From contig JBMOKT010000008.1 in the NCBI GenBank assembly GCA_049323895.1, positions 250,243 through 314,242 on the forward strand: DNA of 64,000 nt, read 5' to 3'. The position numbers and the translations under genes were made by a program. Below are positions 851-57,041 of the stretch, in pieces. This DNA comes from Bacillota bacterium. GTDB lineage: Bacteria > Bacillota > Peptococcia > Peptococcales > BICA1-8. Below the pieces are notes generated by a model. The model was not told the origin of the DNA. It did no database searches and saw nothing but the letters and a program-made list of their open reading frames with translations. Within the stretch, counting starts at the first letter, position 1. Each line of letters opens with the position of its first letter.

Positions 851-869
851 TGTCTTAAAACTGCTAATA

Positions 870-1017: not shown

Positions 1018-1035
1018 ATATCCAATTTAAAGTTA

Positions 1036-1175
1036 TATAAAAAGCCGGGTCAAAAGACCCGGCAGGATTATCAATATAGTTTAGCAAAGCTCAATGTATT
1101 TAGGGCTAATTACTAGCCACTAAGAACCAGCCACTAACTTTTTCCTTGCCGGCCTCACGGGACCGTTTTAAAGGT
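1036..1175 (-). promoter_or_regulatory. PyrR-binding transcription attenuator, copy 1 (promoter-proximal)
   Basis: PyrR loop GGUCCCGUGAGGCCGGCAAGG (comp. 1144-1164), then an identical terminator (stems comp. 1044-1051 and 1056-1063, U-run comp. 1039-1043). This copy is about 167 bp upstream of copy 2. Confidence 0.8.
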
Positions 1176-4939: not shown

Positions 4940-5018
4940 TGCAGCGGCAAAATCTTTAGTCCGAGATCGCTTCGTGCCTCTATGACAATTTCATTGTAAC
5001 ACTCGCCCACTATCTTAT
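4940..5018 (-). repeat. mosaic-vocabulary island Y. It starts at the ATPase TAG stop and shares a 37-38 nt block with 33430-33467.
   Basis: Minus strand reads TAG-ATAAGATAGTGGGCGAGTG..AATGAAATTGTCATAGAGGCACGAAGCGATCTCGGAC. The block at 4959-4995 is the reverse complement of 33430-33467, apart from a CG/A difference (one indel, one substitution) and a C/G substitution. Confidence 0.6.
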
Positions 5019-21958: not shown

Positions 21959-22019
<61 letters not shown>

Positions 22020-22057
22020 AATTGTAACAGAAAAGCAAAGCAGTCAATGCCAGAATT

Positions 22058-22090
22058 AAAAAAACGGGCTTTACGCCCGTTTTTATTTTT
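22058..22090. terminator. bidirectional intrinsic terminator
   Basis: AAAAAAACGGGC-TTTAC-GCCCGTTTTTATTTTT has an A-run and a U-run on both sides. It lies between convergent genes. Confidence 0.8.
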
Positions 22091-22204
22091 CATCACTATT
22101 AATCTTACCTTTACCTTATTTACAATGTCACGATGTCACATCCCGGTAAATTGCCATTCATCATACCACGTCTTTTACTTTCACACTATCACACTTTCAA
22201 ACTA
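22091..22204 (-). repeat. mosaic island B (inverted module order relative to islands A and F)
   Basis: cttacctttacctta; gtcacgatgtcaca; a 26-nt core at 22137-22162 that is the reverse complement of 55654-55679 (25/26); ctttcacactatcacactttcaaactat running into the TAG stop of the next gene. Confidence 0.75.
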
Positions 22205-28033: not shown

Positions 28034-28109
28034 CGCGGGATAGAGCAGCTGGCAGCTCGTCGGGCTCATAACCCGGAGGTCGGAGGTTCAAATCCTCCTC
28101 CCGCAACCA
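28034..28109 (+). tRNA. initiator tRNA-Met (anticodon CAT)
   Basis: CGCGGGATAGAGCAGC..TCGGGCTCATAACCCGG..GGTTCAAATCC..CCCGCAACCA. It has a C1:A72 mismatch, three G:C pairs at the base of the anticodon stem, and an encoded CCA. Confidence 0.9.
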
Positions 28110-28916: not shown

Positions 28917-29077
28917 GGTGACTAGTGACTAGTGACTGGTGACTAGTCAATTGGATAGTTTGAAAAATTTAAGAATTCGATAGTGCAAATCTTAGGGTAT
29001 AGCTTATTGGTTAGTTTAATAAACTCTTTCACTTTTTCACTCTTTCACTAATAATTTCTGTAGCTACTGTAGCTACT
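28917..29077 (+). repeat. mosaic island C: (GTGACTA/G)x4, GATAGTTTGAAA words, (CTCTTTCACT)x3, (CTGTAGCTACT)x2
   Basis: gtgactagtgactagtgactggtgacta 28918-28945; ctctttcactttttcactctttcact 29024-29049; ctgtagctactgtagctact 29058-29077. Confidence 0.85.
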
Positions 29078-33379: not shown

Positions 33380-33500
33380 CCTGCAGCTATAGTTGCTGGT
33401 TACTGGCGACTGCTGATGAAGGAAAAGGAAATGAAATTGTCATCGGAGGCACGAAGCGATCTCCGACCCAAAAGAAACAATCCATGTAATAAGATTTTAC
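33380..33500 (+). repeat. mosaic-vocabulary island X (degenerate GGTTACTGGCGACTG heptamers plus a block shared with 4959-4995)
   Basis: gttgctggttactggcgactgctgatg, then aatgaaattgtcatcggaggcacgaagcgatctccgac at 33430-33467. Confidence 0.55.
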
Positions 33501-35539: not shown

Positions 35540-35812
35540 TATTATAACAACTGTGAAAGAGAAAAGTAGTCTTAACTTGGGGTTTACAGAGAGCCGGGGA
35601 TGCTGGAAACCGGCAACAACATGTAAGATGAAGTTCCCTCCGGAGTTGTCCACTGAACAATAGTAGGTGCGACCGGAAACTTCCACCGTTAACAGGAAGG
35701 GGATATTAAGGTGTTCTTGACACTGCGTATCCTATTAAGCTGGGTCACGTTTGACCAACTAAGGTGGTACCGCGGGTAACCTCTCGTCCTTATAGGGATG
35801 AGAGGTTTTTTG
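35540..35812 (+). promoter_or_regulatory. T-box leader RNA (tRNA-sensing riboswitch) with terminator
   Basis: Stem I elements: AGAGAAAAGUAG, the AG bulge ACAGAGAGCC and the distal loop GGGGAUGCUGGAAACCGGC. T-box sequence AAGGUGGUACCGCGG at 35761-35775. Terminator AACCUCUCGUCC-UUAUA-GGGAUGAGAGGUU plus a U-run at 35778-35812. Confidence 0.9.
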
Positions 35813-35825
35813 TTTTGTTTTTCAC

Positions 35826-35875
35826 GTAGGACGGCAGGATTGGGCAGGATGGCAGGATGGGTAGGATGGGCTTAT
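35826..35875 (+). repeat. degenerate tandem GGCAGGAT(G/T) repeat
   Basis: ggcaggattgggcaggatggcaggatgggtaggatggg, directly after the T-box terminator. Confidence 0.8.
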
Positions 35876-40382: not shown

Positions 40383-40853
40383 TTAGGCTGCTCTTTTCTC
40401 TGCAGATATATTGATGGTTATTTTTGCCCCTTCAAAAATATTAACCGGTACACAAATCATTTGTTCCTTTTGAGTAATCACAATATTACTACCCTCTAAA
40501 ACAGTGGGGCTGGTTATGTTAATGGCTATTCCCTGATTTGCAAAAAGGGTGGCCGTAGTGCCTAAAATCATATTGCACAGTTCACTGACGGCACTCTTTG
40601 AAAGCTCATTAAATTCAACATCCATACCACCCATCATTTGGGAGGCTATATTTACACAACTAACCTTATCAATGTTTATTATTACTTTTCCATTCATTTC
40701 TCCCGTTACACCAATAATAATTAGTAGCTCCTCTTGGCTATTTACAGGCGTATCTTTTACATAGGCTTTTTCAAAGGCCGGCATTGTACCCAAAACCTGG
40801 GTGACAATATCACTGGTGGCCTTTAAAAATGGATTAATATATTTAACATTCAT
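40383..40853 (-). CDS. cheX: CheX/CheC-family chemotaxis phosphatase
   Basis: 156 aa. N-terminus MNVKYINPFLKATSDIVTQVLG is typical of CheX. Located in the che operon. Confidence 0.7.
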   Translation of the reverse strand: MNVKYINPFLKATSDIVTQVLGTMPAFEKAYVKDTPVNSQEELLIIIGVTGEMNGKVIINIDKVSCVNIASQMMGGMDVEFNELSKSAVSELCNMILGTTATLFANQGIAINITSPTVLEGSNIVITQKEQMICVPVNIFEGAKITINISAEKRAA

Positions 40854-40993
40854 TGTTATTTACACTCCTTTAATTATGTATTACTAAATAGCATTCCTGG
40901 AGGCAGCCTGGCAATCTTAGCATATAACCTTAGACCCTAGGCTTTGCGTCCTGCCCTTTCGAACAGTTTGCCCTTATTGTAAATAATTGATTT

Positions 40994-43114: not shown

Positions 43115-46100
43115 CTAAGCAGTTTCTATACTTAGGCACGTACCCCGTCCTCCTTTTAGGGCGGGTTCAACAACAAGACTGCGGGAAATTCTGGCCCTCA
43201 ATTCAGGGACATGGCTAATAATACCGATGGTCATTTTTTCCGTATGCAGCCTTTCCAGAGAATTCATCACAGTTTCCAGCAAAAAACTATCAAGGGTGCC
43301 AAAGCCCTCATCCAAAAAGAAAAATTGCAAGGGATACTTGCCTTTAAGTTGGATTTGTCCCGATAAAGCCAAAGCTAATGCCAAAGAGGTCAAAAATGTC
43401 TCCCCGCCCGAAAGGGTTGCAACAGGTCTGCGCAAACCACCATTGGCATCATCCCTGATTATAAAACCTCCTTCAGAATCTACTTCCAAAGCATACCGGT
43501 AGTTGGTTAATTCACCTAATCTGCGGGAGGCATCTAGAGAAATGCTTATAAGCTGTTCTTCTGCCATGTATTCCACAAAGGTATTGCCGCGAAATAGCTT
43601 TTCTAATAGGACGAGCTTGTCCAGTTCCATGCTTAATAGTTTCCTCTCCCTCTCTAAGTCCTGCCAGCGGACATAATTATTATTCAGGGTTTGGAGATTT
43701 CCCTCCAGCTTATGTACTTTTGCTTGGGCTTCCTCCAGTTCCTTTTCCAGGGTAATTTTTTGCCTCGAAAACTGGAGCCATTGTTCTTGGGTAATACTCC
43801 TCCCAGCTAGTTTATTTTCCAAGGCTTCAATATTTTTTTCTTTTATTAATAAGCTATTACGGTAACTTTCAATTTCGCCTTTTAATTTTTCACATTCCGC
43901 AGGCAAAAGGAATGAAGACTCTGCCTCCTCACAGGAGTTAAAGCCATACTCAGCTAATTTATCATTTAATTGCCTTTCACCTTCAAATATTCTGAAACAA
44001 ATCCCCTCTATTTCTTGATCCGCTGACAAAAGGGCACCTTTTTTTTCCTCCCAGGAAATCTTTGTCTGCTCCTTATTTTCTACTGCTTTATTAAATTGCC
44101 TATTTATAGATTCCAATTCAATCAAAACCAACTCTTTTGCCTCTTTGGGTTTTTTTCCACCGGTAATATCGTTAATTTTAGATGTATACTCAGATATCAA
44201 ATTATTAGAGTTCTGCCCTTCTTGCTTAATAACTTCCAGGCTTTGCAGCAGTTTTGCCTTCAAGTCTTGTCGTAGGGAAAGCTGTTCATAGTAATAATCT
44301 AACTGCTGAACTGCTTCTTTTTCCAAGCTTCTTAATCTTTCTACATCCTGTTTTGCCTCCTTGAGTAAGTCAACTCGGTTTAAAATCTCTTCAGCCGACA
44401 GTCCCTGGGCAGAATTCTTAAAAGCAAGCAGCTTTTCATCCCGTTCTATAATGAACTTTTTTTCCTTTTCCTTTAAGTCTTCCAAATCTTCACCCATGGC
44501 AGCAGCTCTTGCTTCTTCTTGCTTCAAGAAAACATACACTTGGTTTACTTGTTTTGAAAGGGCGTCTGCCTCTTTTGCCAGTCTTTCCTTATGACTGGTA
44601 TATGAATCCAATAAAGTTTGTTGATTTTGATAGTACTCCTTTTCCTCTGCCAGCTTCATCTTGATATGGGCAAGAGACAACTGCTGCCAGTTACCAGGGA
44701 GATTTTGCACATTTAAATCAAGAGCTGTTTGCAGTTCCCGAGCTTTAGACTCTAACTGAATCTCTTCTTTTTTAATATTTTCATTTTGTATTTTAAGGGC
44801 TGCGATTTCCTGGGCAATAACTCTGTATTTTTCTTCAATTTCTTTTAGGTTTTGTTTATGCGACAGCAGCGCATTTTGCAGGTTTGCAATCCCATCCTCT
44901 GACCCGTCAAGGATTGGGGCCGGGTTGGGATGGTCTAGAGAACCGCAGACGGGACAGGGAATATCTTTTTGCAGCCTGCTGCTTAATAATGACCCATAGC
45001 TTTGCACTTCCTTTTCCTTAATAAGGATTTCCAGGTCATTAACTGCAGAAACAAATTTTTCCCTCTGTAAAGCTGCTTGATTAAGATAGAGCACCTGTTC
45101 CTGTAATTGTCTTTCGAATAATCTTTGCTTATCTCTATTTTCAGATATTTGCTTCTGGATATTGACCAATAATGTCTGGTAGTGTTCTAAAGTAAATACT
45201 TCTTTTTCCCATTGGGAAATTTTCATGAGGAGACTATTTAGTTCATCTTGTTCCAAGACGGGTCTCGGCAGTTGATGATTTTCTTGTTCCTTTATTTGTT
45301 GCCGCCGTGATATTTCTTCCAGTTCATGCTGATATGCTTTTACTTTCTTTTGAATAGCATCAAAATTTTCTTCTTTATTTTTTTTATTTAGATTGAACTC
45401 AAGTAAACCCTTTTCAGCATCCATAAAGACCTGCAAAGTTTCTTTTTGTCTATTAATAACTTCCTCCTGCTTCAGAAGTTGTTCTTTTGCTTGTATTGCC
45501 CCATTAAGATCGTCTCTTTTATTTTGAAAAAAGGTCTTTTTCTTATCTAGTTCCTTAATCTCAGCTATAAGAGCCTGATATTCATTATTTAAAGCTGTAT
45601 ATTCTGCCAATAGCAATTCACGCTTACCCTGCAGCTCATCCCTTTTTTGTTCAGCAATAAATGCATCTTCCAGTCTATGCAGGGTAATTTTCAGCTTTTC
45701 CCCCTGGGTATTTATTATTTCCTGCCATTTTAGCAGGTCCTGTTCTGCCCCCTGATAAGCCTGTTTTACTAATACCAACTGCGCTTTCAATATTGCCGCT
45801 TCTTCTGTTCTTTGTCTTTTGAGTTTGTTTTCATTTTTGAGATATGTTATAAAGGGCTTTAGATAATCAGCCTGAACAGCACCTTTTAGCCTTTCCTCTT
45901 TCCCCCTGATTTCTTCCTGTAAGCTTTGCAAGGAATTTTGTATTTCTAACTCCTGAGCTAGTTCCTCCTGGAGTTGTAAAATCTGCTTAAAATCTTCCTC
46001 TCTTTTTCTGAATTCCTCCGCCTTTGTTTTCAGAGTTTGCAGGATTTTTGTTTCCTGCGCCAGATTCTCTGTCAGGTGTTCTATTGCCTCAGGTGATGCA

Positions 46101-46720
46101 TCACCAAGTTCACTTTGCCTGCCTCTGATCTTCTCTTCATTTATTTTAGTATGGTTTAAACGGTTTTTAATGTTCTGTATTAACTGTTCACCGTATTTCT
46201 CCAGGTTAAAAATCCTTTGCAGCATTTTCCTTCTTTCCGCACCCTGCAGTGTTAAAAACTCTTGGAATTTGCCCTGGGGAAGGACAACAGCACGGGTAAA
46301 ATCCTCTGAAGTAAGCCCTAGAATACCCTGTATTTTTTCATCCACTTCCCTTTTTTTATCAGCAATGACCTGAGGTTCATCCTCCATGAATTCCATCAAA
46401 CGGCAGCTCTGTTGATTTATGCTGCCGTCACTGCTCTTCTTATAAGAGCGTTCAGCACTAAACTTCCTGTCTCCTATTTCAAAGGTAAAACCCACATATG
46501 CTTTTTCCTCATTTTGATTAATAATTCCCGAAGTAGCACCCTTTGCCCGCTCAACCTTACCATACAAGGCCAGGGTTATAGCATCGAGAACCGTTGATTT
46601 GCCGCTGCCCGTTGGTCCGAATATTCCAAATACGCCTGCTTCACAAAGGGAAGTAAAATCAATTTCCTGTTGCTCCCGAAAGCTATTGAGACCTGCAATA
46701 ATTAGATGAATAGGTTTCAT
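43115..46720 (-). CDS. sbcC: SbcC (Rad50-like) exonuclease ATPase subunit
   Basis: 1201 aa. Walker A GPTGSGKST, long coiled coils with the CPVCG zinc hook, signature LSGGETF, Walker B FFFLDEGFG. ATGA overlap with sbcD. Confidence 0.95.
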   Translation of the reverse strand: MKPIHLIIAGLNSFREQQEIDFTSLCEAGVFGIFGPTGSGKSTVLDAITLALYGKVERAKGATSGIINQNEEKAYVGFTFEIGDRKFSAERSYKKSSDGSINQQSCRLMEFMEDEPQVIADKKREVDEKIQGILGLTSEDFTRAVVLPQGKFQEFLTLQGAERRKMLQRIFNLEKYGEQLIQNIKNRLNHTKINEEKIRGRQSELGDASPEAIEHLTENLAQETKILQTLKTKAEEFRKREEDFKQILQLQEELAQELEIQNSLQSLQEEIRGKEERLKGAVQADYLKPFITYLKNENKLKRQRTEEAAILKAQLVLVKQAYQGAEQDLLKWQEIINTQGEKLKITLHRLEDAFIAEQKRDELQGKRELLLAEYTALNNEYQALIAEIKELDKKKTFFQNKRDDLNGAIQAKEQLLKQEEVINRQKETLQVFMDAEKGLLEFNLNKKNKEENFDAIQKKVKAYQHELEEISRRQQIKEQENHQLPRPVLEQDELNSLLMKISQWEKEVFTLEHYQTLLVNIQKQISENRDKQRLFERQLQEQVLYLNQAALQREKFVSAVNDLEILIKEKEVQSYGSLLSSRLQKDIPCPVCGSLDHPNPAPILDGSEDGIANLQNALLSHKQNLKEIEEKYRVIAQEIAALKIQNENIKKEEIQLESKARELQTALDLNVQNLPGNWQQLSLAHIKMKLAEEKEYYQNQQTLLDSYTSHKERLAKEADALSKQVNQVYVFLKQEEARAAAMGEDLEDLKEKEKKFIIERDEKLLAFKNSAQGLSAEEILNRVDLLKEAKQDVERLRSLEKEAVQQLDYYYEQLSLRQDLKAKLLQSLEVIKQEGQNSNNLISEYTSKINDITGGKKPKEAKELVLIELESINRQFNKAVENKEQTKISWEEKKGALLSADQEIEGICFRIFEGERQLNDKLAEYGFNSCEEAESSFLLPAECEKLKGEIESYRNSLLIKEKNIEALENKLAGRSITQEQWLQFSRQKITLEKELEEAQAKVHKLEGNLQTLNNNYVRWQDLERERKLLSMELDKLVLLEKLFRGNTFVEYMAEEQLISISLDASRRLGELTNYRYALEVDSEGGFIIRDDANGGLRRPVATLSGGETFLTSLALALALSGQIQLKGKYPLQFFFLDEGFGTLDSFLLETVMNSLERLHTEKMTIGIISHVPELRARISRSLVVEPALKGGRGTCLSIETA

Positions 46721-47949
46721 TGAGACTCAACCTCTCTCCCTTGATCCACTAATTCCAAAAATAATTTAAGAAGTTCGTCCTTTGGCTCGGACTGAAAATT
46801 CTTCATGTAAAAGCTTTTAAAAAGTTCATCTATTGGAAGATTTATGCGGTCTTCCCATTGTGCCTCTTTTTGAACCATATTTTTTAAAACAGGTCTGATA
46901 TTAATAATATCCGGTCTTATTTCCTTCAATTGTTTAATCTCACCTATAGTTAAAGGCTCATCCAGATGGATAGCCAAGTCGATCCAAGCAAGGTAATCTC
47001 TTTTTTCCTGGCACCATTTAAATACCTGCTGTATTCCTAAAGGGGCATCCCACCGAACTAAGGGGCGGCCGCTGGATAAAGGTATCTCTTTTACAACAGT
47101 TTTACTGCCGGGGCTGCATTCTATCAAATACACAACCTTGGTCTGACCCGCTTCGGAAAAACTGTAGGCCAAAGGAGAACCCGAATACCTCGCATTTTCT
47201 TTATCCCCCACCCGCTGGGGTCTATGCAAATGACCCAATGCAGTATAATGAGCTTTTTCTAAAGGAAGCATTTGTATATCGACAGCAGGGGAACCACCCA
47301 ACTGGATAGGACGCTCCGATTCACTCTCCCTGCCCCCCCGCACAAATAAGTGACTCAGGCAAAGGTTCACTGTATCGTGTCGATAATAACTGCTAAGGTT
47401 ATTTATAAGGGCTCCCACTCTTTGGGAGTAACTTTTTTGCATGACTTCTTCATCCAGGTTAACGGCTAAAATTTCCTTTAGCCTTTGTTCTGAGGGGTAC
47501 GGAAGAGCAATTATCACTGCCTGATGGCTGCAGCCGGGAACAGCCAGTTTTAACCAACCCGGACCTGCATTCACCCTCTGCACCTTCCCCGTCTTAGTAC
47601 CCAATACTGACGCCTGTTCCTTAGGCAGACCCAACAGAGTAATTCCCAACTGTTCCGCTAAGGGATCAGAGGCTGTAATCCGTTCCGGATTGTCATGGTT
47701 GCCGGCAATGGCAACTATCCCCCTCCTGCCTCCTGCCGACAGATTAAATAGTCCTTGATAAAAAAGCTGTTCCGCTTTGGCAGGGGGGTTGGGGGTGTCA
47801 TAGATATCACCTGCTATCAGCACCAGGTCAACCTTCTCCTGCTCTACAATATCACACAATTCATTTATAAATGCTTCCTGCTCTTGGTGCCTGTCCCTGC
47901 CTTCCAGAGACCGCCCCAAATGCCAGTCTGATGTATGTAGGATACGCAT
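46717..47949 (-). CDS. sbcD: SbcD (Mre11-like) nuclease subunit
   Basis: Start at MRILHTSDWHLGR. Phosphoesterase motifs GDIYD and GNHD. Confidence 0.9.
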   Translation of the reverse strand: MRILHTSDWHLGRSLEGRDRHQEQEAFINELCDIVEQEKVDLVLIAGDIYDTPNPPAKAEQLFYQGLFNLSAGGRRGIVAIAGNHDNPERITASDPLAEQLGITLLGLPKEQASVLGTKTGKVQRVNAGPGWLKLAVPGCSHQAVIIALPYPSEQRLKEILAVNLDEEVMQKSYSQRVGALINNLSSYYRHDTVNLCLSHLFVRGGRESESERPIQLGGSPAVDIQMLPLEKAHYTALGHLHRPQRVGDKENARYSGSPLAYSFSEAGQTKVVYLIECSPGSKTVVKEIPLSSGRPLVRWDAPLGIQQVFKWCQEKRDYLAWIDLAIHLDEPLTIGEIKQLKEIRPDIINIRPVLKNMVQKEAQWEDRINLPIDELFKSFYMKNFQSEPKDELLKLFLELVDQGREVESQ

Positions 47950-48000
47950 ATCTTGCATCTCCCTTCTTTTCGATGTTACGTCTAGTAAGCTAGTCTTCAT

Positions 48001-48267
48001 GATAATACACTTTAAGTGGCTACAATTGTTATAGTGCTACAGTGCTACCGAAAAATACTAAAAGGTTATTTACTATGAAAGCTGCACATTCATGGTCACA
48101 CTTTCTTTTACTATCACACTATCAAACTATCAAACTATCGCACTCACAAACTACCAGCACTAGCCACTAGCCACTAACAACTAGCCACTGTTTTTTACCA
48201 GTCACCAGTCACCAGTCACCAGTCACCAGTCACCAGTCACCAGTCACCAGTCACCAGTCACCAGTCA
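48001..48267 (-). repeat. mosaic island D between addA and sbcD, inverted orientation, ending in (CCAGTCA)x10
   Basis: gtgctacagtgctacc 48034-48049; ctatcacactatcaaactatcaaactatcgcactcacaaactacc 48111-48155; cactagccactagccactaacaactagccactg 48158-48190; a perfect 70-nt heptamer array at 48198-48267 abutting the addA TAG stop. Confidence 0.9.
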
Positions 48268-51200
48268 CTATAATTGTATCGCTTTACCTAGACTAAACAA
48301 ATACAAATATCTTTCTTTAACCTTTTCCTTAGTTATAGTCTCTACAGCTCTGGTATAAAGGTTTATTTGCCCGGAGTACCTATCGATAAACCCTGAGAGG
48401 TCTTCATCCTTTATTTGGTCACTTTTATAATCAATTAAAACCCAGCCTCCATCCTCATACCACATGCAGTCAATTACCCCTTGCAGTAATACTTTATCAG
48501 AGGTATCGGTCCCAATATCATCATAAATCTCCTGAACATCCAAGGTTAAACTGAAGGGAATTTCCCTTTCTGCCCTTTGGGCCCTTTTAAGTCTTTCCCC
48601 TAGAGAACTCTCAAAAAAGAGCAGGATATTTTCCTGGGGGATTGACTCTTTTTGTTCTGGAGTTAGTAACTCCCTGCTTAATAAATCCTCCAGAAACATC
48701 TCCAGGTATTGCCCGGTGATTTTCTGATGTAATGGAATATGCTGCATCACACAATGGATAGCAGAGCCTTTTTCTACAGCTGTCAAAGCCTTCTTCTTTT
48801 GAAGAAATACGGGGCGCCTTCTAAATCCTTGAAAAATCCTGTTTTCTTGTAAATCAAGCTGCACTTCCTGAAATTTATGCTTAATCTCGGTAACACTAAC
48901 TTTAGCCCCTTTGGTGCTTACCCCGGGAAAGGGGTATGTCCACTCCAGCTTTTCTGCAACCTGTCTATAAAGCTGGGGATCAATCTGTACCTGCTGTAAA
49001 TCCTTAATGCTTTCCAGCATTTCCCTGGTTGCTGCAACCTGCTCATCTTCCTGGACGTTTAATTCTTCTTGCAGAACGGCAATTTCCCACGCAGATTCAT
49101 CTTCCAGCAGGGAAATTGCCTGCTGTGGGACGAATCTACGCAAGGGGATGCCATCCCTGTGCCTGGTTAACGCAGGTCCAAGCCAATCCAAAAAGCTGTC
49201 GGCCTGGGCAAGGAAGCTGTCGGGAATTTTAACAGAGGGAATGTCTAAAAATTGAGCCCAGTCCTCAATTTGTTTCTGTACCTTTCTTACAGTACCAATC
49301 ATTATCAACTTTTCCCTGGCTCTGGTCATAGCTACGTAAAGTATGCGCATTTCTTCCGCCAAGGTCTCTAGCTTAACCTTAATATCTATGGCAAGTTTAG
49401 CAATTGTTGGATATTTAATCCTCTTCTCAGGATCGATAAAAACAGGTCCAAGACCTAAATCCTTATGCAGAGTAATATCTTGCCTGGTATCCAGCATGTT
49501 AAACTTTTTGCCCAGCCCGGCAATAATTACAACGGGAAATTCCAAGCCCTTGCTTTTATGGATACTCATAATACGGACGACGTTTTCGTTTTCACTAAGG
49601 GCTTTAGCCGCCTCTAAATCACTTTTATTTTCCTCCATTCTTTGCAGGAAACGGAGAAACATAAACAGCCCCTTGAAACTGGTTGTTTCAAATTGCCTGG
49701 CCCTGTCGTGGAGGGCCCGCAGGTTTGCCTGCCGCTGGCTTCCCCCGGCCATTGCACCTACATAATCGAAATAACCCGTTTCCCGATACAAAGTCCAAAT
49801 AAGGTTTGCCAGTTCATTCTGACGGGCCAGGGTTCTCCAGTTTTCCAGCCGGGACAGGAATCCTCCCAATTTTTCGGCTAATTGGTCCTTTGTTTTCTCG
49901 ACTGTTTGTAATATAGCCTGGTAAAAATCACCTTGAGGACAATGAAGTCGGATATTTGCCATCTCCTGGGAACTTAATCCCACTAGAGGCGAGCGAAGCA
50001 CCCCAGCCAAAGGGATATCCTGCCGGGGATTATCTATAATCTTTAATAAGGAAAGCATAATCTGTACTTCCGTAGCTTTAAAATATCCCCTTCCCAGTTC
50101 TCCATAAACAGGAATTCCCAGTAAACGGAACCTTTCCAGAAAGGTCTCTGCAGAACCTTTAGGTGAGCGTAGAAGGATAACAATATCTGAATAGGTAATG
50201 GTCCGATAGTCGTTTGTTTTTTTATCAAACACAAGACAATTCTGCTCTATTAGTTCCTTAATCCGATTACCTATTATAACCGCTTCCCGTTCTACGGAAG
50301 TCAGTTGCTCTGCCTCTTCCATATCTTTTTCTACTAAATAAAATTCTACCGGACCTGCCAAACCAGCTTGCCCTTGACATTCTGGGTAAACTACGCCGCA
50401 TCTGAGGCGAGCCTCCTGGTTATATTCTATCTCCCCTAAATCCTTGCCCATTAATTGCTGAAAAACAAAGTTTACTCCATCCACAATCTCCTTGCGGCAG
50501 CGGAAATTACTAGCTAAATCTATCCGCCGGTCTGCATATCCTTCCTTGTTTGCAAAGCGGTAATATTTTTCCTGGAAAAGTTCAGGCCTTGCCAGACGGA
50601 AGCGGTAAATACTCTGCTTCACATCACCCACCATAAAAAGATTATCAGGACGGGAAACAAGCTGTAATATGGTTTCTTGAACGTCATTAATATCCTGGTA
50701 CTCATCAACTAAGACTTGGGAGTACTTTTCCTGGAGCTTCATGCTGACGGCAGAAGGTATTATCTGTTCAGGAGTTGAATTTGTTGCCATTAACAGTTGG
50801 AGACAGTAATGCTCTAAGTCATTGAAATCCATAATGTTTCGCCGTATCTTGGCCTTGGCATACTCTTCCTTAAACTCCATAACTAAGCGTCCGAGAAGCT
50901 CCAAATAAGGTTGTACAATTACTAAATCATTAATAAAGTCCTGGGGTAAACGATGAAAATATTTATTCTGCAGTCCTTTCAATATATCTTTGGCCTTATC
51001 TCTAAAGTATTTTACCTTTTCCTGCAGCTCCGGATTACTTTCTTCTTTTTTTGCCCTAGGCAGCCTGCCAAAGGCCGCAGTGGATGCCGCATCGTAGGCT
51101 TCCTTCCAGGAAAGGGATGCTGCATTTAATATATCTTCCAAGAGATAAATTTCCTCTTGAAGTGTAGCAATATAAGCGGCAGGTCCTCCCGGTGCCCCTG

Positions 51201-51891
51201 CCAGCCTAAATGCCTGCACCAGCATTTCCCGGGCAGTACTGAATTCCATTTTAATGCTTGGCAATAGGTATTGAAACCATTCCGAGCCAGTAAAACCAGT
51301 AATTACCTCTTCCAGCCATTTTTGCGGCCAGGGATTGCTTTGGGCAAAGGAAAACAGTTTGATTATCAAGTTCTGTATCAAGACATCATCCTGTGAACCT
51401 CCGTAGGCATCTATCAATTTGCTAAAACCGTCGCCGTCGACGCAGTTTGTGTAGTATTTTTCCAGGATTTCCTCCAATACATCCAGCCGTAAAAGTTCTG
51501 CCTCCGTCTCGTCAGCAATTCGGAAGTGGGGGTCTATGCCTAGAATATAGAAATTCTCCTTCACCACCTCCATGCAAAAGGAATGGAGTGTCATAATTGA
51601 TGCTTTATTAAGCAGGGTACTCTGCCGGTACAAATGACGGGAAAGGGGGTTTCTTTTTGCCGCTTGTGCCAGTGCTGCACCTATTCTCTCCTTCATCTCT
51701 GCGGCAGCGGCATTAGTAAAGGTTACCACCAAGAGGGCATCCACATCAACAGGAGCCTTTTCATCACAAATCAGTTTGATAATCCGTTCTACCAATACAG
51801 CAGTTTTTCCCGAGCCTGCTGCTGCTGCCACTAAAAGGTTGCAGTTGCGAGTATATATTGCCTGTTCCTGTTCCCTTGTCCAGGTGGTCAT
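48268..51891 (-). CDS. addA: ATP-dependent helicase/nuclease AddA
   Basis: 1207 aa. UvrD-type helicase (AAAGSGKT..) with a C-terminal RecB-family nuclease (GVIDCMW..LIDYKSD). AAGGAG SD. Confidence 0.95.
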   Translation of the reverse strand: MTTWTREQEQAIYTRNCNLLVAAAAGSGKTAVLVERIIKLICDEKAPVDVDALLVVTFTNAAAAEMKERIGAALAQAAKRNPLSRHLYRQSTLLNKASIMTLHSFCMEVVKENFYILGIDPHFRIADETEAELLRLDVLEEILEKYYTNCVDGDGFSKLIDAYGGSQDDVLIQNLIIKLFSFAQSNPWPQKWLEEVITGFTGSEWFQYLLPSIKMEFSTAREMLVQAFRLAGAPGGPAAYIATLQEEIYLLEDILNAASLSWKEAYDAASTAAFGRLPRAKKEESNPELQEKVKYFRDKAKDILKGLQNKYFHRLPQDFINDLVIVQPYLELLGRLVMEFKEEYAKAKIRRNIMDFNDLEHYCLQLLMATNSTPEQIIPSAVSMKLQEKYSQVLVDEYQDINDVQETILQLVSRPDNLFMVGDVKQSIYRFRLARPELFQEKYYRFANKEGYADRRIDLASNFRCRKEIVDGVNFVFQQLMGKDLGEIEYNQEARLRCGVVYPECQGQAGLAGPVEFYLVEKDMEEAEQLTSVEREAVIIGNRIKELIEQNCLVFDKKTNDYRTITYSDIVILLRSPKGSAETFLERFRLLGIPVYGELGRGYFKATEVQIMLSLLKIIDNPRQDIPLAGVLRSPLVGLSSQEMANIRLHCPQGDFYQAILQTVEKTKDQLAEKLGGFLSRLENWRTLARQNELANLIWTLYRETGYFDYVGAMAGGSQRQANLRALHDRARQFETTSFKGLFMFLRFLQRMEENKSDLEAAKALSENENVVRIMSIHKSKGLEFPVVIIAGLGKKFNMLDTRQDITLHKDLGLGPVFIDPEKRIKYPTIAKLAIDIKVKLETLAEEMRILYVAMTRAREKLIMIGTVRKVQKQIEDWAQFLDIPSVKIPDSFLAQADSFLDWLGPALTRHRDGIPLRRFVPQQAISLLEDESAWEIAVLQEELNVQEDEQVAATREMLESIKDLQQVQIDPQLYRQVAEKLEWTYPFPGVSTKGAKVSVTEIKHKFQEVQLDLQENRIFQGFRRRPVFLQKKKALTAVEKGSAIHCVMQHIPLHQKITGQYLEMFLEDLLSRELLTPEQKESIPQENILLFFESSLGERLKRAQRAEREIPFSLTLDVQEIYDDIGTDTSDKVLLQGVIDCMWYEDGGWVLIDYKSDQIKDEDLSGFIDRYSGQINLYTRAVETITKEKVKERYLYLFSLGKAIQL

Positions 51892-52180
51892 GGTAACAAC
51901 TCCTTATTCGTCGTGTCGTCTACTCATCTTTTCGTCTTTTCGTCTAGTGGTCATCTCGTGTTGGTCTAAAGTATTAGGTCTGTATGACGACTAATGGTTT
52001 TCATTATTGGTCGGTATTTCGGCTAAAGGGATTTACTGAATGTCAACATTTTTAACCCTGTCTCGCGAATGAGCTTGCGATTGAACAAAAGGATGTTATT
52101 CGGTGACACGGTTTTTTAGCCAACTAGCCACTGACTGATTTTTCTAGTCAGCAACAAGCTCCAAGTCACTAGTCACTACT
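51892..52180 (-). repeat. mosaic island E between addB and addA
   Basis: TCGTC-rich words (cgtcgtgtcgtct, ttttcgtcttttcgtct) at 51909-51946; agccaactagccactgactg 52128-52147; agtcactagtcactact 52164-52180, overlapping the last codons and the TAG stop of addB. Confidence 0.8.
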
Positions 52181-55100
52181 TAACAATTCCCAGACTTGCT
52201 CATTACTTAATGGCTTAATAGTACGGAAGCAGTTGTTTTCTACCTGCCGGTCAAACTGGCAGACAATCAAAAAGGAACAGTAACTGCAAGCTTGAAAACC
52301 CTTAAACTCATAGGGCGAAATACTCACATCCCCCTTTAGTACAGCTTCTCCCGCCTTTTTCATGATTCCCCTGACATGATTTCGTAAAGCCTCTATCTGT
52401 TCAGTATTTACCGCTTTAGAATTCTTATAAAATTGTCCATCCTTATTGATGGCTGCAGGAATAATAGGTGACCAACCGTCCTTGGTTTCTCCATCCATAA
52501 GTTGAAAAACCTCCTGATCTGCCACCAGCAGCCCCTCCATTTTTAGTTCCTTGAGGATGTTTTTTTCCAGTTCATCCTCGGAAATTGGACCTGTCAAAGA
52601 CAGCATAGGATCCTTTAGAAAAAAATATAATATACCGGCAGGCAGCGCTTCTTTGGTCTGCAGCAGCTGGTCGGCATAAGTAAGGACAATGTCCAAATAG
52701 GTTAACAGTTGAAGCTTTAAGCCATAATAGACCTCCATAATACCTAATCCCGCATTGCCCGACTTATAATCTATTACCCTTAGGAAATACTTTCCTTCCT
52801 TGCAGGCTGCATCCACCCGGTCAATTCTTCCTACTAACTCCATTTCCGTTCCATCTTCCAGGGTTATCTTTAAAGCAGGCAAAGAACCTTGGGGTCCAAA
52901 AGCTGCTTCTAAAGCCACAGGTCTGAATTTGCCCCTGCGGGCATGCTCAGCCAAGATGAGAGCAGCTCTTTGGATTGTCTTTTTAAACCTCTTAGTGAGG
53001 TATTTGTATTTTGCCGAGCTTAAAAGAATTTCCCCCTGTACCTGGGGAATCAGCTCTTCAGCAATATTGTCACAAAGGATTATAATGGCTTTTTTATCTA
53101 ATTGAGTCCAATCCAAGTTCTCAACTTCAAGTTTATTAGCTAAGGATTCTAAGGCCTTGTGGTAAAAACGTCCTAAATCAGGCTGGGAAAGTTTAAAAAT
53201 TTCCCTTTCCCGCAAGCCCAGTCCATAAGTACTGAAATGGGAAAAAGGGCAGGCTTGGAATTTTTCTAAACGGGATACGCTGACCCTTAAGGGGTTGCCG
53301 AACAAACCTCTAGCAGTAAGGGAATCAATTGGTAGGGCCTGATTGGTATGAAACAGACCCTCAACAACCCTTTGCAAACCTAATTTGCCTTGTTGATTTT
53401 GCAAAAGCCATTGGTAGATATTCCACCAAACTGGCTCAACAGGTTGTCCCTCCCTAGCCTGACGCAGTTGTATCCCTAAACCCGATAAAGCCTTTTGGGG
53501 ATGGTTTATAAACTCCGGCTCCATCCAGGATAAAGTTTCACATAGCTTAGGGAAAATATCCTTGATCCTTCTAATGATTGAAGAAGGTCTTAATGCCCTG
53601 CCTTCACTATCGGCCAGGGGATAGCTTAGAACTAAATAGTGGCTGGCCCGGGTCAGGGCCATATAGACTAAAAACTCCTCTGTAAAGACCTTTTCCTTAT
53701 TTCCCGGTGCCAGTTCCAGCCCAATATCCTTTAAATAATCCCGCTCAAAATCATTAAATATTCCTTCCGAACCAGGTCTGGCAGGGAAAATCCCTTCCAA
53801 GACACCTAAAATAAATACACCCTTTAAATTAGGATTTCTTGAACGCTCTAATGAACCAACAACCACCTGGTCCAGACCGGGAGGTATTAAACCTAACTTC
53901 AGACTTTGCAGTCCCGTATCAATAATCTTTATAAAGCTATCCAGATTAAAGGGCTGTGCACCCATGGTTTCTGAGATTTGGTCAAGAATATCCATGATGC
54001 CATCCCAGATTTGGTTGTGTTCCCCTGCTGACACCAGCCGTCCCTGCTCTCCTGCCTCTAGTGAGCAATTCTCCAATTTACGTGAGACATCCAATTCAAC
54101 CAATAAATTATATATGGCTGCAACAGCATCAACATTACATTGGCATTGGCGGATTGCAACTGTAAAAGAATGAAGTTCCTTAATACCCCTCCGGCGAATA
54201 CTATTTATATTACCATTGTCTTTGCATTTCCAATCTTTATGGTGGTGCCACCTTTTACCTCTAATACCATAGGCTAATATATAGTTCTCCAATATATCAG
54301 CATCAGCCCGGCTGATATTAGTCAGGTCCGTTTTGAAATAGCGGGACACAGCCTGATAGGACCAATCTTCCATTACTGCCTCTAAGGCTGACCTGAGCAA
54401 CTCAACTAAGGGATGATGCATAACCGTTCTTTTCCTGTCAATAAAAAAGGGAATTTCGTAATCGGAAAAAATAGTCTCTATCAATAGATCATAATTGTTA
54501 AAGTCTCTTAGGAGTAATGCAATATCCTTATACCGCCAGCCTTCATCCCGGCATAGCCTTCTAATTTCCCCCGCTACCGACTCAACTTCCTCCCGCTGGT
54601 TTTGGGAACTGATAATCCTGATGTTTCTTACTTCTTCATCGAAGGGTTGGGCGGCAGGTGCAAAAAAATTCTCTTCTAAATAACTAAGGTCGCGTTGTTG
54701 GGCAAAACGGTATGGTTTCTCATTAACCGCTAAAACATATGGTTTTTCAATTGGGACGCTGCTTTTCAAGGCAGCATCTGTCAATCTGTCAAAGGTTTTG
54801 TTTGTCTCCTGAAAGATATTTCTTTTGTCCAGGGTCAATAAAACATTGACCCTTTTAGCAGTTTGCAGCAGCACCTTAATTACACTTATTTCCTGGGGAG
54901 TAAAGCCAAAAAAACCATCCAGCCAGATTTCTGAATTAATTATAGTGGGAGATGAATGGGCTTTGACACCTAAAAGGCTTAAGGAATCATCGGGATCAAT
55001 AAATTTATCAGCAAGATAATTTTCCAAATCGGAATATATCAGTTCCAATTCCCGCAGCTTGGATAATAAAAGAGAGTCTTCCTGGCTTTTTGCCTGCAAA

Positions 55101-55528
55101 ACATTGTTTAAATCCTGATTACTGATTTGGTATAGCTTGAATTCAGAAATGGCTGAAGATACGCTATCTATAAAGCCGGGGAAGTCACCGGCTTTGTTGA
55201 AAATTTGCAACTGGTCTTTACGATTTTCTATAAATTGACGAATAACCATATGCTTGCCCAGGTCACTAATATGTACCTTATTGCCTCCGCCTGTTTCCTG
55301 AAACACCCGCCAGGCTAAACGGCGAAAGCTTAAAACCTGTGTACCTATAATACCTTGGAGTTGGGGATGGGAAGCCAGCGCTAATTCGTATTGGAAGGTA
55401 GCCTGTTCAGGAACCAACAAAATATGGGGTTTGTTAAGGGGCGACGATAATAGGTCTTCCTTTATATAATTTAGACAGTATGTAGTTTTTCCTGAGCCTG
55501 CAGGTCCCAAAATGAATCGCAAAGTCAT
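52169..55528 (-). CDS. addB: ATP-dependent helicase/nuclease AddB
   Basis: 1119 aa. Walker A GPAGSGKT, a C-terminal nuclease (GRIDRVD..VIDYKSG) and Fe-S cysteines (CPFSHF.. CSYCSFLIVC). Confidence 0.95.
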   Translation of the reverse strand: MTLRFILGPAGSGKTTYCLNYIKEDLLSSPLNKPHILLVPEQATFQYELALASHPQLQGIIGTQVLSFRRLAWRVFQETGGGNKVHISDLGKHMVIRQFIENRKDQLQIFNKAGDFPGFIDSVSSAISEFKLYQISNQDLNNVLQAKSQEDSLLLSKLRELELIYSDLENYLADKFIDPDDSLSLLGVKAHSSPTIINSEIWLDGFFGFTPQEISVIKVLLQTAKRVNVLLTLDKRNIFQETNKTFDRLTDAALKSSVPIEKPYVLAVNEKPYRFAQQRDLSYLEENFFAPAAQPFDEEVRNIRIISSQNQREEVESVAGEIRRLCRDEGWRYKDIALLLRDFNNYDLLIETIFSDYEIPFFIDRKRTVMHHPLVELLRSALEAVMEDWSYQAVSRYFKTDLTNISRADADILENYILAYGIRGKRWHHHKDWKCKDNGNINSIRRRGIKELHSFTVAIRQCQCNVDAVAAIYNLLVELDVSRKLENCSLEAGEQGRLVSAGEHNQIWDGIMDILDQISETMGAQPFNLDSFIKIIDTGLQSLKLGLIPPGLDQVVVGSLERSRNPNLKGVFILGVLEGIFPARPGSEGIFNDFERDYLKDIGLELAPGNKEKVFTEEFLVYMALTRASHYLVLSYPLADSEGRALRPSSIIRRIKDIFPKLCETLSWMEPEFINHPQKALSGLGIQLRQAREGQPVEPVWWNIYQWLLQNQQGKLGLQRVVEGLFHTNQALPIDSLTARGLFGNPLRVSVSRLEKFQACPFSHFSTYGLGLREREIFKLSQPDLGRFYHKALESLANKLEVENLDWTQLDKKAIIILCDNIAEELIPQVQGEILLSSAKYKYLTKRFKKTIQRAALILAEHARRGKFRPVALEAAFGPQGSLPALKITLEDGTEMELVGRIDRVDAACKEGKYFLRVIDYKSGNAGLGIMEVYYGLKLQLLTYLDIVLTYADQLLQTKEALPAGILYFFLKDPMLSLTGPISEDELEKNILKELKMEGLLVADQEVFQLMDGETKDGWSPIIPAAINKDGQFYKNSKAVNTEQIEALRNHVRGIMKKAGEAVLKGDVSISPYEFKGFQACSYCSFLIVCQFDRQVENNCFRTIKPLSNEQVWELLSSD

Positions 55529-55845
55529 ATTTACACCGGCTTTCGTTAAGTAGTTACTGGTGACTGGTATAAAAGTGTGAAATTATAAAAGTGTGATAGT
55601 GTGACAGTAAAAGAACGTGCGGATATAAACGTCTAGCTTACAGGACGTGTCACGATGAATGGCAATTTTCCGGGATGTGCTGCCGGGTCACCGATTGACA
55701 GTCTTTTGTTCTTGACTCTCTTACTTTTTCACTTTTACACTCTTTGAAATTCTTACTTTTCAGTAGCACTGTAGCACAGACACGCTGTATATCATATAAG
55801 CTTTCACACGGACAAGCAGTATTTACGTAATAGCTTACCTTTACA
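55529..55845 (+). repeat. mosaic island F in the addB/ecsC divergent region
   Basis: actggtgactggt; aaaagtgtgatagtgtgacagtaaaagaacgtg; gtctagcttacaggacgtgt 55631-55650; core gatgaatggcaattttccgggatgtg 55654-55679; ctcttactttttcacttttacactctttg; cagtagcactgtagcac; tagcttacctttac ~55830-55844. Confidence 0.8.
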
Positions 55846-55985
55846 ATAAACCGGTTTGACGGTTTAATGTTATATTTCTACCCAAAGAACATATGTTCCT
55901 GCAACTATTATTAAAGAATTTTCGTATACTATAAAAGTAATAAACAAAGGTTGACATGGCTTCAAGAAGGAAGGAAATAAATTTT

Positions 55986-56705
55986 ATGGAATATGAGGTA
56001 AGGGTCAAAAAAGAATTGGCTGCCTGGGAAAAAAAAATCTTATGCAGGACCGGAATCTTGGAACAAATGTCAAGAGGTATGCAGAAGAAGATTGATTCCT
56101 TTATCCCCCCTAAGATACACAAGACAATAAGCAAAACTATGGAAGTAACCATCAAATCAATACTGGCGGGAATCAACCTTATCCCTGTTGATGAAAAAAA
56201 GCTGCGTATCGCCCAGAATCTTAGTTTGGCGGAGGTGGATTGTGAAGTAGATAAAATCATAAAAAACTACAAGAAGGTTGCAGCGGCAACTGGAGCCGGA
56301 ACCGGCTGGGGAGGTTTACTGGGCCTGGCAGTGGATTATCCTGCATTAATTTCTCTGGAATTGAAAATGCTGCAGGAAATTGCCCTAGCCCACGGTTATG
56401 ATATAAACTTAAAACCAGAAAGAACCTACCTGCTTAAGGTCTTCATTTTGGCTTTTTCCGCAGACTCCTGCAGAAAAAGAACCTATTTGGAATTGCTAAA
56501 CTTCCAGAACCAAAGGGAAATAGACTGGCAGCAACTGTACCATGAATATAAGGAACGGGTAGAATTTAAAAAAATGCTCCAGATTATCCCCGGATTTGGA
56601 GCTGTCGTAGGAGCCTGGGCAAACTATGGACTAATAACCGAGTTAGGAGAGACTGCCCGCAACGCATATCGGCTACGATACTTCAAACGGCAAGAGCTAC
56701 GCTAA
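55986..56705 (+). CDS. EcsC-family protein
   Basis: Start at MEYEVRVKKELAAWEKK.. The family pattern (..GAGTGWGG..A..D.PAL) matches EcsC/PF12787 as I recall it. Confidence 0.6.
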   Translation: MEYEVRVKKELAAWEKKILCRTGILEQMSRGMQKKIDSFIPPKIHKTISKTMEVTIKSILAGINLIPVDEKKLRIAQNLSLAEVDCEVDKIIKNYKKVAAATGAGTGWGGLLGLAVDYPALISLELKMLQEIALAHGYDINLKPERTYLLKVFILAFSADSCRKRTYLELLNFQNQREIDWQQLYHEYKERVEFKKMLQIIPGFGAVVGAWANYGLITELGETARNAYRLRYFKRQELR

Positions 56706-57041
56706 GGTAAAGGTAAGCTATTAGGTTAATTTTTCCGTCAGGAAAAGATACACTTTGGGGCTAAATATTCCGTCAGGTATAGAAAAACACCAGTTTGATA
56801 GTGTGATAGTTTGAAAGTTTGATAGTATAATACGTGTCACAATGATTGTCTAGCTTATAGGACGTGACATCGTGTCGCCGTGACATCGAATATCAGCACC
56901 CAATAGTTCTGGGGCTACTGTAGCTACTGTATTTATTTTACCTTTACCTGTCCCAAAAAATATACCCGGAAGCTTACCTCTACCTGTCATGCAGAGTCGC
57001 TTTATAGCTTACCTGACATGCAGTATACCTCCATAGCTCAA
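56706..57041 (+). repeat. mosaic island G between the convergent ecsC and rnhA genes, with GGTAAAGGTAAGCT / AGCTTACCT.TACC inverted termini
   Basis: aaaggtaagctattaggt 56709-56726 (identical to 10608-10625); ttccgtcagg x2; gtttgatagtgtgatagtttgaaagtttgatagt; gtctagcttataggacgtg 56848-56866; cgtgacatcgtgtcgccgtgacatcg; ctactgtagctactgt; agcttacctctacctgtcatgcag 56971-56994; agcttacctgacatgcag 57006-57023. Confidence 0.85.

Follow-up and report, generated by a model that had tools for sequence, protein, structure and literature searches.

Heptameric repeat islands at once-tight junctions of the addB-addA-sbcD-sbcC operon in a Peptococcaceae-like Firmicute

The question raised by this locus is why two junctions of a recombination operon, addB-addA-sbcD-sbcC, are filled by islands of short tandem repeats, and why the stop codons of the upstream genes lie inside these repeats or directly against them. 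The operon belongs to a stretch of 64,000 nucleotides (nt) from a Bacillota bacterium (assembly GCA_049323895.1, contig JBMOKT010000008.1, positions 250,243 to 314,242), referred to here as the window. An earlier reading of this DNA, made from the sequence only, attributed the pattern either to insertion targeted at gene ends and stop codons or to the capture of gene 3' ends by expanding repeats. Our analysis leads to a different emphasis. We propose, with a probability of roughly 0.7, that both gaps are copies of lineage-wide non-coding word islands, of the short tandemly repeated repetitive (STRR) or heptameric simple sequence repeat (SSR) type, lying in once-tight junctions, and that constraint on the flanking signals together with frame closure would explain where the stops fall.

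Gene order and boundaries of the operon

The identities and order of the four genes, all on the minus strand, were established with NCBIfam equivalog models and agree with the Bacillus-type order assigned previously. The addB gene (52169-55528) encodes a protein of 1119 residues (TIGR02773, addB_Gpos, 1220 bits over residues 1-1116), and addA (48268-51891) encodes a protein of 1207 residues with an intact C-terminus (TIGR02785, addA_Gpos, 1308 bits over residues 3-1205). As had been noted, sbcC (43115-46720) overlaps sbcD by an ATGA (46717-46720), and this junction has stayed tight in the five relatives for which the genes were inspected. The mechanically called open reading frame (ORF) of sbcD runs from 46717 to 48000. 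Its ATG at 48000 is almost certainly a 17-codon over-extension into the island (47950-48000), the predicted true start being the ATG at 47949 (MRILHTSDWH), so that the gene would span 46717-47949. This ATG is preceded by a GAAGGGAG ribosome-binding site (RBS), the first 17 residues of the ORF lie outside the profile match, and SbcD in relatives has 410 residues with an identical N-terminus. The non-coding gap between addB and addA (51892-52168) is 277 nt long, and that between addA and sbcD (48001-48267) is 267 nt, or 318 nt when counted to the true sbcD start.

A Logan assembly of SRR32167787, produced separately, is identical to the window over 49534-55589; because this identity extends across the whole addB/addA island, that island is no assembly artefact. 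The Logan contig stops short of the addA/sbcD island. Homology of AddB points to a Peptococcaceae/Peptococcales-like Firmicute as the host: the best homologues (63-59% identity) are metagenome proteins and metagenome-assembled genomes labelled Peptococcaceae or Peptococcales, followed at 44-49% by those of Desulfotomaculum, Desulforamulus and Desulfonispora. A scan of AddA against the GTDB representative genomes yielded no close relative (best match, 41% identity), nor does that set include the genome from which the window comes.

Transcription of the operon probably begins upstream of addB. A perfect LexA/Cheo box consensus, GAACATATGTTC, lies between ecsC and addB at 55887-55898 and is the sole GAAC-N4-GTTC in the window; a CAGGAACATATGTTC motif is also found upstream of addB in four relatives (L012, L014, L018 and L139). 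This arrangement suggests one SOS-controlled addBA-sbcDC transcript whose leader, about 330 nt long, would itself hold a repeat island. Scans for sigma-70 promoters and intrinsic terminators returned none on the sense strand within either operon island, and their totals were not above those of shuffled sequences. Since the islands contain no terminator or promoter consensus, the four genes are probably still co-transcribed from the SOS-type promoter.

Structure of the islands at the two junctions

Tandem Repeats Finder (TRF) and a map of the words confirmed that both gaps are composed of tandem words of 7-9 nt. The addA/sbcD island (47950-48270, minus strand) begins in sense orientation right after the addA TAG with (TGACTGG)x10, followed by (GTGGCTA)x3-4, (TAGTTTGA/TAGTGTGA)x4-5, GTAAAAGAA and a GTGTGACC core; its distal part consists of (GTAGCACT)x2 and TAGCCAC, after which comes the sbcD RBS. 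The first array (48197-48268) is a perfect (TGACTGG)x10.3 (TRF unit ACCAGTC, 100% matches, score 144) and overlaps the last base of the addA TAG, as expected from the earlier statement that this stop sits against the first CCAGTCA unit. The GTGGCTA heptamers and the TAGTTTGA/TAGTGTGA octamers occupy 48110-48189, where TRF reported CACTAGC x4.6 (48158-48189) and ACTATCAA x3.8 (48110-48139); it also reported AGTGCTAC x2 at 48033-48048.

The addB/addA island (51892-52178, minus strand) is ordered as TAGTGAC x2, a CTGACT/AGTCAG hairpin, GTGGCTA-like words, a GTGTCAC core and GACGAAAA words, and ends with the addA RBS (AAGGAG); TRF reported TTCGTCTT x4.9 at 51907-51945. The 3' end of addB reads ..TTA AGT AGT GAC TAG TGA CTTGG, so that its last two codons and its TAG (52169-52171) fall inside the TAGTGAC pair and a TGA comes next in frame. 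The stop had been described as part of a heptamer run. Its location within the repeat words was confirmed, and the run proved to be an array of two units only (AGTGACT, 52164-52178, minus strand; TRF unit AGTCACT x2.1).

These words have direct consequences for translation. In sense orientation they are GT-rich and include TAG or TGA, and their periods are not divisible by three. Because such stop-bearing words recur with periods of 7 or 8, every frame is closed within a few units: all sense frames are closed within 17 nt in the addA/sbcD island and within 53 nt in the addB/addA island, and the former holds 40 stop triplets on the sense strand versus 13 on the antisense strand. AddA and AddB each end with an in-frame double stop, TAG TGA, whose TGA is part of the first word. 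When the unit number of the addB array was changed in silico, one additional unit left the protein unchanged and the removal of one unit added six residues.

Other types of content were sought in the islands. Rfam 15 covariance models gave no match between 47900 and 52300 even at E<=1, no small ORF of at least 20 residues was present on the sense strand of the addA/sbcD island, and neither operon island proved to contain inverted repeats with arms of 10 nt or longer. Two small ORFs in the addB/addA island (23 and 28 residues) were unsupported and were not considered credible.

Comparison of the junctions in relatives

The two comparisons that the sequence-only reading had proposed, of C-termini with orthologues and of junctions with those of island-free relatives, were both carried out, and they support its assumption that the junctions were ancestrally tight. 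In the closest outgroup, Peptococcaceae bacterium 1198_IL3148 (L015; AddB identity, 55%), addB and addA are separated by 3 nt and addA and sbcD by 17 nt. The first junction reads ..CAG GGG GAG GAA TAG / TAA / ATG, with GGGGAGGAA before the TAG, and the addA RBS is thus encoded by the last AddB codons (tail GEE*). The second reads TAA / AATGGGGGTGGTTTTTG / ATG, with about 3 nt from stop to RBS. The addB/addA junction is likewise 3 nt long in Desulfonispora (L016; 49%) and an 8-nt overlap in D. reducens (L017; 46%), neither of which has sbcD downstream. Junctions that were ancestrally tight and coupled are therefore filled by islands in the window.

Two relatives represent intermediate states between tight junctions and islands. 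In L139 (AddB identity, 59%) the spacers are 63 nt (addB/addA) and 39 nt (addA/sbcD), with GT-rich TTGGAG words directly 3' of the addB TAG; in L140 (55%) they are 32 and 95 nt, with CTAGCCAC words ahead of the sbcD RBS. The four closest relatives (L009, L012, L014 and L018; 61-63%) have islands at both junctions, of 112-300 nt between addB and addA and 86-359 nt between addA and sbcD, and each genome uses its own word set. L014 has GAGAATT, L018 a TTGGAAAG / CTTTCCAA palindrome and L012 GTGACTA together with GTGGCTA, and GTGGGCGAG words are used in L009, L012 and L018. Repeat words stand immediately 3' of the addA stop in L012, L014 and L018. The different words at orthologous islands could be understood because word sets would turn over or be homogenised within genomes. 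We also considered dating the insertion by the homology of orthologous island cores and rejected this approach, since all islands of the family share a AAAACCGTGTCACCG-type core.

The two upstream proteins differ in their C-termini. The AddA tail (..LG-x-x-x-x-[LIV]*) has the same length in eight relatives, whether islands are present or absent. By comparison, an alignment of 40 AddB homologues is conserved only up to ..W-x-x-L-(S/x)-(S/G), and the tail beyond this point varies from 0 to about 25 residues. This short tail was found to be encoded by the island in the window and in the three relatives in which it was read (L009, L012 and L014). In the window, GAC TAG gives D* from island words; in L014, GAG AAT GAA GAA TTG AGA ATT GAG AAT TGA gives ENEELRIEN* from (GAGAATT)n; in L012, GGG CGA GAG GGC CGG TGA gives GREGR* from GGGCGAG words; and in L009 the island-encoded tail is about 20 residues longer than the others. 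Thus, the suggested capture of gene 3' ends is supported, in a limited sense, for AddB, whose dispensable tail was rewritten, and not for AddA, whose C-terminus is unchanged.

Array length was seen to change in one case. L009 and its close relatives L010/L011 are 99.97% identical over 22.9 kb, and their sole indel is one ACCAGTC unit. The slipped array, (CCAGTCA)n at 8124-8202 of L009, supplies the TGA stop of ecsC (AAT AAC AAG TGA-CTGG(TGACTGG)n), and is built of the same heptamer as the array at addA in the window, at a different locus.

Constraint, frame closure and the position of the stops

The explanation that we favor starts from the geometry of the outgroup junctions, where room for extra DNA would exist solely from the last constrained codon of one gene to the RBS of the next. 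Given this tight geometry, any tolerated insertion would therefore lie at the stop or in it. At the addA/sbcD junction, with about 3 nt of room, the island would come to lie flush with the ancestral stop and AddA would stay unchanged. At the addB/addA junction, the island would be pushed into the dispensable AddB tail, and AddB would read into it and end at the first in-frame stop, a termination that the sense-strand words would make harmless. The arrays would then change by unit slippage and the word sets would turn over between genomes, a step that the observations above bear out in part. Insertion targeted at stop codons, the other proposal of the sequence-only reading, is not required at these two junctions, where the outgroup geometry leaves almost no other room. 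The most direct predicted consequence is that the translational coupling of AddB, AddA and SbcD has been lost. In addition, sense transcripts of the addA/sbcD island, which are GU-rich, can adopt stable G.U hairpins, with possible effects on mRNA stability or processing.

Contact between stops and repeats extends beyond the operon. Three further stops had been listed as lying within an island or against its first word, and two of them do so: the TAG of a flavin adenine dinucleotide (FAD)-oxidoreductase gene (22202-22204) is inside the first octamer, TAGTTTGA, and the ecsC TAA (56703-56705) is followed directly by GGTAAAGGTAAG. The TAG of a P-type ATPase gene (5019-5021) is near and not abutting, at 8 nt from the first recognisable word, GTGGGCGAG. 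In the window as a whole, 4 of 24 arrays touch a stop whereas random placement of each array within its own gap would give 1.03 (P=0.017), and one of these four, at the sbcC stop, is weak (2.4 copies). The G/T-rich strand is the coding strand near or over the stops of addA, addB, the 22202 gene and ecsC.

A broader sample was obtained by scanning public metagenome contigs with (GTGRCTR)x3.9, which returned at least 120 contigs of 39-73% G+C; the counts that follow are among the matches listed, with genes approximated by stop-to-stop ORFs of 150 codons or more. An ORF stop fell within -10..+21 nt of the array start in 37/90 cases on the forward side versus 5/71 on the reverse-complement side (Fisher p=5e-7), and long ORFs were open right up to the array in 47/90 versus 14/71. 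The names of these contigs include human-gut assemblies. Pairs of forward and reverse arrays were also observed between convergent ORFs in three contigs (L060, L019 and L093). The sequence-only reading had named two observations that would speak against it, identical C-termini in orthologues without islands and a stop coincidence no greater than chance. The first applies to AddA, and the second does not apply, as the coincidence exceeds chance.

It is important to consider several points that weigh against our explanation. The geometry covers the two operon junctions but not convergent genes whose stops are flush as well, namely the 22202 gene and the ecsC genes of the window and L009. The orientation bias across taxa is also left unexplained, and a further force must act, whether selection on translation signals, an RNA role or a mutational bias. 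Array edges are degenerate, and part of the metagenome stop excess is a mechanical effect of frame closing. The relatives are distant (55-63% AddB identity) and none offers a near-isogenic island-free junction, and the series fits repeated independent colonisation as well as it fits a single ancestral insertion followed by word turnover. The one array with observed slippage belongs to a relative and is not part of the add islands. Finally, co-transcription and the loss of coupling are themselves predictions.

Alternative explanations

The arrays might instead be selected RNA-level elements, GU-rich after stops and CA-rich before starts, that form hairpins or offer an array of sites to a single-strand-binding protein, in which case the stop position would be functional and the elements could insulate cistrons, stabilise the upstream mRNA or tune termination and re-initiation. 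The strong orientation bias across many contigs fits this idea, and so does the chirality of the arrays, which is fixed whatever the orientation of the flanking genes: on either strand, GT-rich arrays stand at the 5' end and CA-rich arrays at the 3' end. This rule is obeyed by 23/27 arrays with |keto skew| >= 0.15 in a hand tally of the window, L009, L012, L014 and L018. Moreover, (GUGACUG)10 folds at -35.4 kcal/mol versus -2.6 for its complement, the folding energy of the addA/sbcD island is -98 to -104 kcal/mol in sense orientation (z about -4 to -5) versus -45 in antisense, and in L018 the words at the same junction form a compact hairpin of 2x35 nt. Islands are kept at both junctions in five of five clade members, the heptamers of Xanthomonas and Nostoc follow the same positional rule (PMC4692102), and TAACTGA repeats have been suggested to bind a regulator (PMC4679880). 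On the other hand, words are not conserved between orthologous islands, copy number drifts, the addB/addA island (z -0.4 to -1.6) and the L014 island gave no fold signal, no covariation was available for testing, there is no Rfam family, and the outgroups do well without islands. We therefore regard an RNA-level function as the cause of the pattern as unlikely.

Two narrower ideas of this kind were dropped. A long-range hairpin is no universal property of the islands, being strong at 594-975, in the addA/sbcD sense strand and in L018, and absent at addB/addA and in L014. A HutP/TRAP-like UAG-N4 reading of the heptamers was abandoned because (TGACTGG)n contains no UAG.

Rather unlikely, in our judgment, is that the islands are non-autonomous mobile elements, resembling miniature inverted-repeat transposable elements (MITEs), repetitive extragenic palindromes (REPs) and their bacterial interspersed mosaic elements (BIMEs), or Correia elements, which would insert site-specifically at or next to stops, for example at TAG/TGA targets, so that the abutment would reflect target choice. 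At least seven islands in 64 kb carry the same modules in the same order, several have inverted word arrays at both ends, flush stops occur also at convergent pairs, where the coupling geometry does not apply, and in a relative a TGACTGG array supplies the stop of ecsC, a different locus. Nevertheless, the junctions that were inspected show no constant termini, target-site duplications or uniform length, and the first module differs among islands (G, A, B or C words). Orthologous islands differ in their words from genome to genome, graded intermediates of 32-95 nt exist, and other islands lie behind terminators or 8 nt from stops. No transposase was seen beside the islands, although no search aimed at transposases was made.

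A more far-reaching version of selection, which we consider quite improbable, is a 'punctuation' grammar shared across phyla that has replaced coupling here. Stop-bearing, GT-rich words capable of G.U self-pairing would follow stops, and CA-rich words free of start codons and Shine-Dalgarno-like sequence would precede RBSs, which would insulate the cistrons. If true, ribosomes that had frameshifted or read through would be ended, re-initiation would be blocked and the mRNA would be protected or processed, and the chirality of the arrays along with the recurrence of GTGRCTR at 39-73% G+C would indicate function or a shared mechanism and not drift.

Chance or a low-complexity assembly artefact, for which the two-unit addB run, the ATPase stop that is not flush and the modest window test could be cited, is highly improbable in view of the separate assembly that is identical across the addB/addA island, the perfect 10-unit array at the addA stop, the same junction behaviour in four relatives from independent samples and the metagenome asymmetry.

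Relation to known intergenic repeats

Heptameric intergenic repeats near stops have been described in other phyla. Rehm et al. 2015 (PMC4692102) reported G-rich heptamers in Xanthomonas and Nostoc that prefer sites between aligned ORFs, occur on the coding strand at <=50 bp from a stop or overlapping it and on the non-coding strand upstream of ORFs, and can form inverted pairs, with one example between pecE and pecF. MacGregor 2015 (PMC4679880) described TAACTGA repeats in marine Beggiatoaceae, cyanobacteria and Bacteroidetes, the same heptamer thus occurring in distant phyla; in forward orientation they provide stops in all frames, and 13 sets overlap the upstream stop.

The cyanobacterial STRR sequences (CCCCAGT, TTGGTCA, CAACAGT; in Nostoc PCC 7120 GGGGA(C/T)T, PMC4692102) resemble the islands in layout. 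Both consist of tandem heptamers in many dispersed intergenic copies, with several adjacent word types and sometimes inverted arrays, placed between co-directional genes and within operons (pecE-pecF), and in both it is the coding strand that is G-rich immediately 3' of stops and the non-coding strand that is G-rich immediately 5' of starts. By our own comparison, the STRR1 register GGGGACT and the GGTGACT register of the window's TGACTGG differ at one position (6/7). Two metagenome contigs, L119 and L063, have GT-rich arrays and, behind them, CA-rich arrays that reach a start codon; in L119 these are (GTGACTG)x4 and CAATTAC arrays, an STRR-like layout, and the translated N-terminus allows a guess that this contig may be cyanobacterial. 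Unlike STRR, the window has a Peptococcaceae-like Firmicute as host, its words are GTGGCTA and GTGACTR with octamers and a 9-mer, none of them G-quadruplex (G4)-forming, and its islands show a recurrent module order around a GTGACA-type core. The islands are accordingly not STRR in the strict sense, as units and host differ; with head-to-tail 7-nt units at dispersed non-coding loci, unit slippage (in a relative) and the GT strand at stops, they have the features of the wider heptameric SSR/STRR type.

The GGGAATC heptamers of Xanthomonas (PMC4692102) share the location between aligned ORFs and the inverted pairs, and they are transcribed; they differ in forming G-quadruplexes, in having typically 4 units of one word type and in their gammaproteobacterial host. 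The TAACTGA repeats (PMC4679880) are likewise intergenic heptamer arrays with forward stops in three frames, inside which ORFs end. In contrast to the islands, they have mostly 2-6 copies and lie directly upstream of starts, often replacing the Shine-Dalgarno sequence, whereas in the window the stop-bearing arrays are at the upstream end of the island, and its downstream end leads into a canonical RBS.

The REP/BIME sequences of enterobacteria are also mosaics of short repeats with hairpin potential, extragenic yet transcribed, at gene 3' ends or between cistrons. A REP unit, however, is an imperfect palindrome of 20-40 nt, in contrast to the direct words of 7-9 nt found here, which are inverted only as whole arrays. 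REPs are mobilised by REP-associated tyrosine transposases (RAYTs), and neither a RAYT gene nor a constant unit was seen in the window, whose ORFs were partly scanned. Liang, Rudd and Deutscher reportedly found (Mol Cell, 2015) that translation of a gene is affected by REPs that lie no more than about 15 nt from its stop. The BOX elements of Streptococcus pneumoniae (boxA-(boxB)n-boxC) are modular and intergenic as well, with variable internal tandem units in a fixed order; their modules are 45-59 nt long, without sequence similarity to the islands, and we know of no report of an association with stops. The islands also lack the features of MITEs, since they range from 86 to about 550 nt, have differing end modules and show no flanking duplications at the junctions inspected. 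Clustered regularly interspaced short palindromic repeats (CRISPR) were dismissed because no constant repeat alternates with unique spacers. By defining features, then, the islands belong with the known heptameric intergenic repeats and not with REP/BIME, MITE, BOX or CRISPR.

A literature search on Peptococcaceae and on heptamer repeats near stops found no description for this lineage. The host lineage, the word set, the ordered mosaic and the comparative series of invaded coupled junctions are new. The findings extend heptameric intergenic repeats from cyanobacteria, Xanthomonas, Beggiatoaceae and Bacteroidetes to a Peptococcaceae-like Firmicute, with a series that passes from tight junctions through spacers of 30-95 nt to islands of 90-360 nt, and in which the repeats rewrite the dispensable AddB tail and supply stops. 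They also carry a warning for annotation, as the ends and starts of ORFs beside islands are set by the repeats, as in the over-extended sbcD and the variable AddB tails.

Other islands and features of the window

The word families A, B, C, F and G, which are found in at least seven islands of the window, have 73 matches in 8.9 kb of non-coding DNA versus 18 in 55 kb of coding DNA. Their vocabulary comprises GTGGCTA, GTGACTG/A, TAGTTTGA/TAGTGTGA, GTAGCACT and GGTAAAGGTAAG, with units of 7-9 nt; TRF heptamers include AGTGGCT x8.6 (100% matches) and GTGACTA x4.3, along with octamer and 9-mer arrays. A recurrent order was found at 594-1145, 21959-22205, 28918-29077, 55553-55780 and 56706-57015: GGTAAAGGTAAG, GTGGCTA, GTGACTR, TAGTKTGA, the core, reverse words, GTAGCWACT, reverse GGTAAAGG and reverse GTGGCTA.

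These five islands differ in their setting. The one at 594-1145 (plus strand) has GTGGCTA, TGACTGG and octamer arrays, the core and CTAGCCAC arrays, and contains an inverted array pair (594-613 / 944-963, 20 nt, 95% complementary). The island at 21959-22205 lies between convergent genes; its (AGTGGCT)x8.6 starts 8 nt past one stop, and its octamers hold the FAD-oxidoreductase TAG of the opposite strand. At 28918-29077 an island lies between the two intrinsic terminators of convergent genes and is flush with neither stop; in all, intrinsic terminators separate the words from three island-facing 3' ends. The island at 55553-55780 (plus strand) belongs to the 5' leader of addB, downstream of the putative SOS promoter and ahead of the start codon, with its CA-rich strand in addB sense. 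The last (56706-57015, plus strand), between the convergent ecsC and RNase H genes, has GGTAAAGGTAAG words directly after the ecsC TAA and their complements at the far side, with a 12-nt perfect inverted pair (56705-56716 / 56938-56949).

Some non-repetitive sequence is shared as well. The islands around 22110-22140 and 55650-55690 have in common a core, GATGAATGGCAATTT(A/T)CCGGGATGTG, flanked by GTGACA/TGTCAC motifs, and ACGTG(T/A)CAC-like motifs are present in every island core. Inside the 594-1145 island, a hairpin, GCCGGGTCAAAAGACCCGGC, follows AAAAA in two copies (878-897 and 1044-1063), and a CTAGCCAC array comes after each, which indicates that a unit of about 166 nt was duplicated within this island. 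A dispersed module, TTGTCAT(A/C)GAGGCACGAAGCGATCTC(G/C)GAC, has two exact 16-nt copies, at 4963-4978 (minus strand) and 33448-33463 (plus strand), where 0.02 would be expected; islands of L009 and L012 contain hairpin modules related to it, GTCATTGCGAGCGGAGCGAAGCAATCTC and GTCATCCTGAGCG..GAAGGATC.

At the gathering threshold, Rfam models matched a T-box, a cyclic di-GMP-I (c-di-GMP-I) riboswitch and a tRNA in the whole window, and nothing in the islands. The T-box leader (35544-35794, plus strand) is full length (132 bits) and has a (AGGATGGC)n array behind it at 35828-35871. About 1.4 kb separates it from the start of the next plus-strand ORF of at least 80 residues, and its neighbours are minus-strand genes; the leader looks orphaned or rearranged. 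The c-di-GMP-I riboswitch (40899-40982, minus strand), upstream of the gene at 40383-40853, and the tRNA gene (28034-28106, plus strand) are ordinary features unrelated to the islands.

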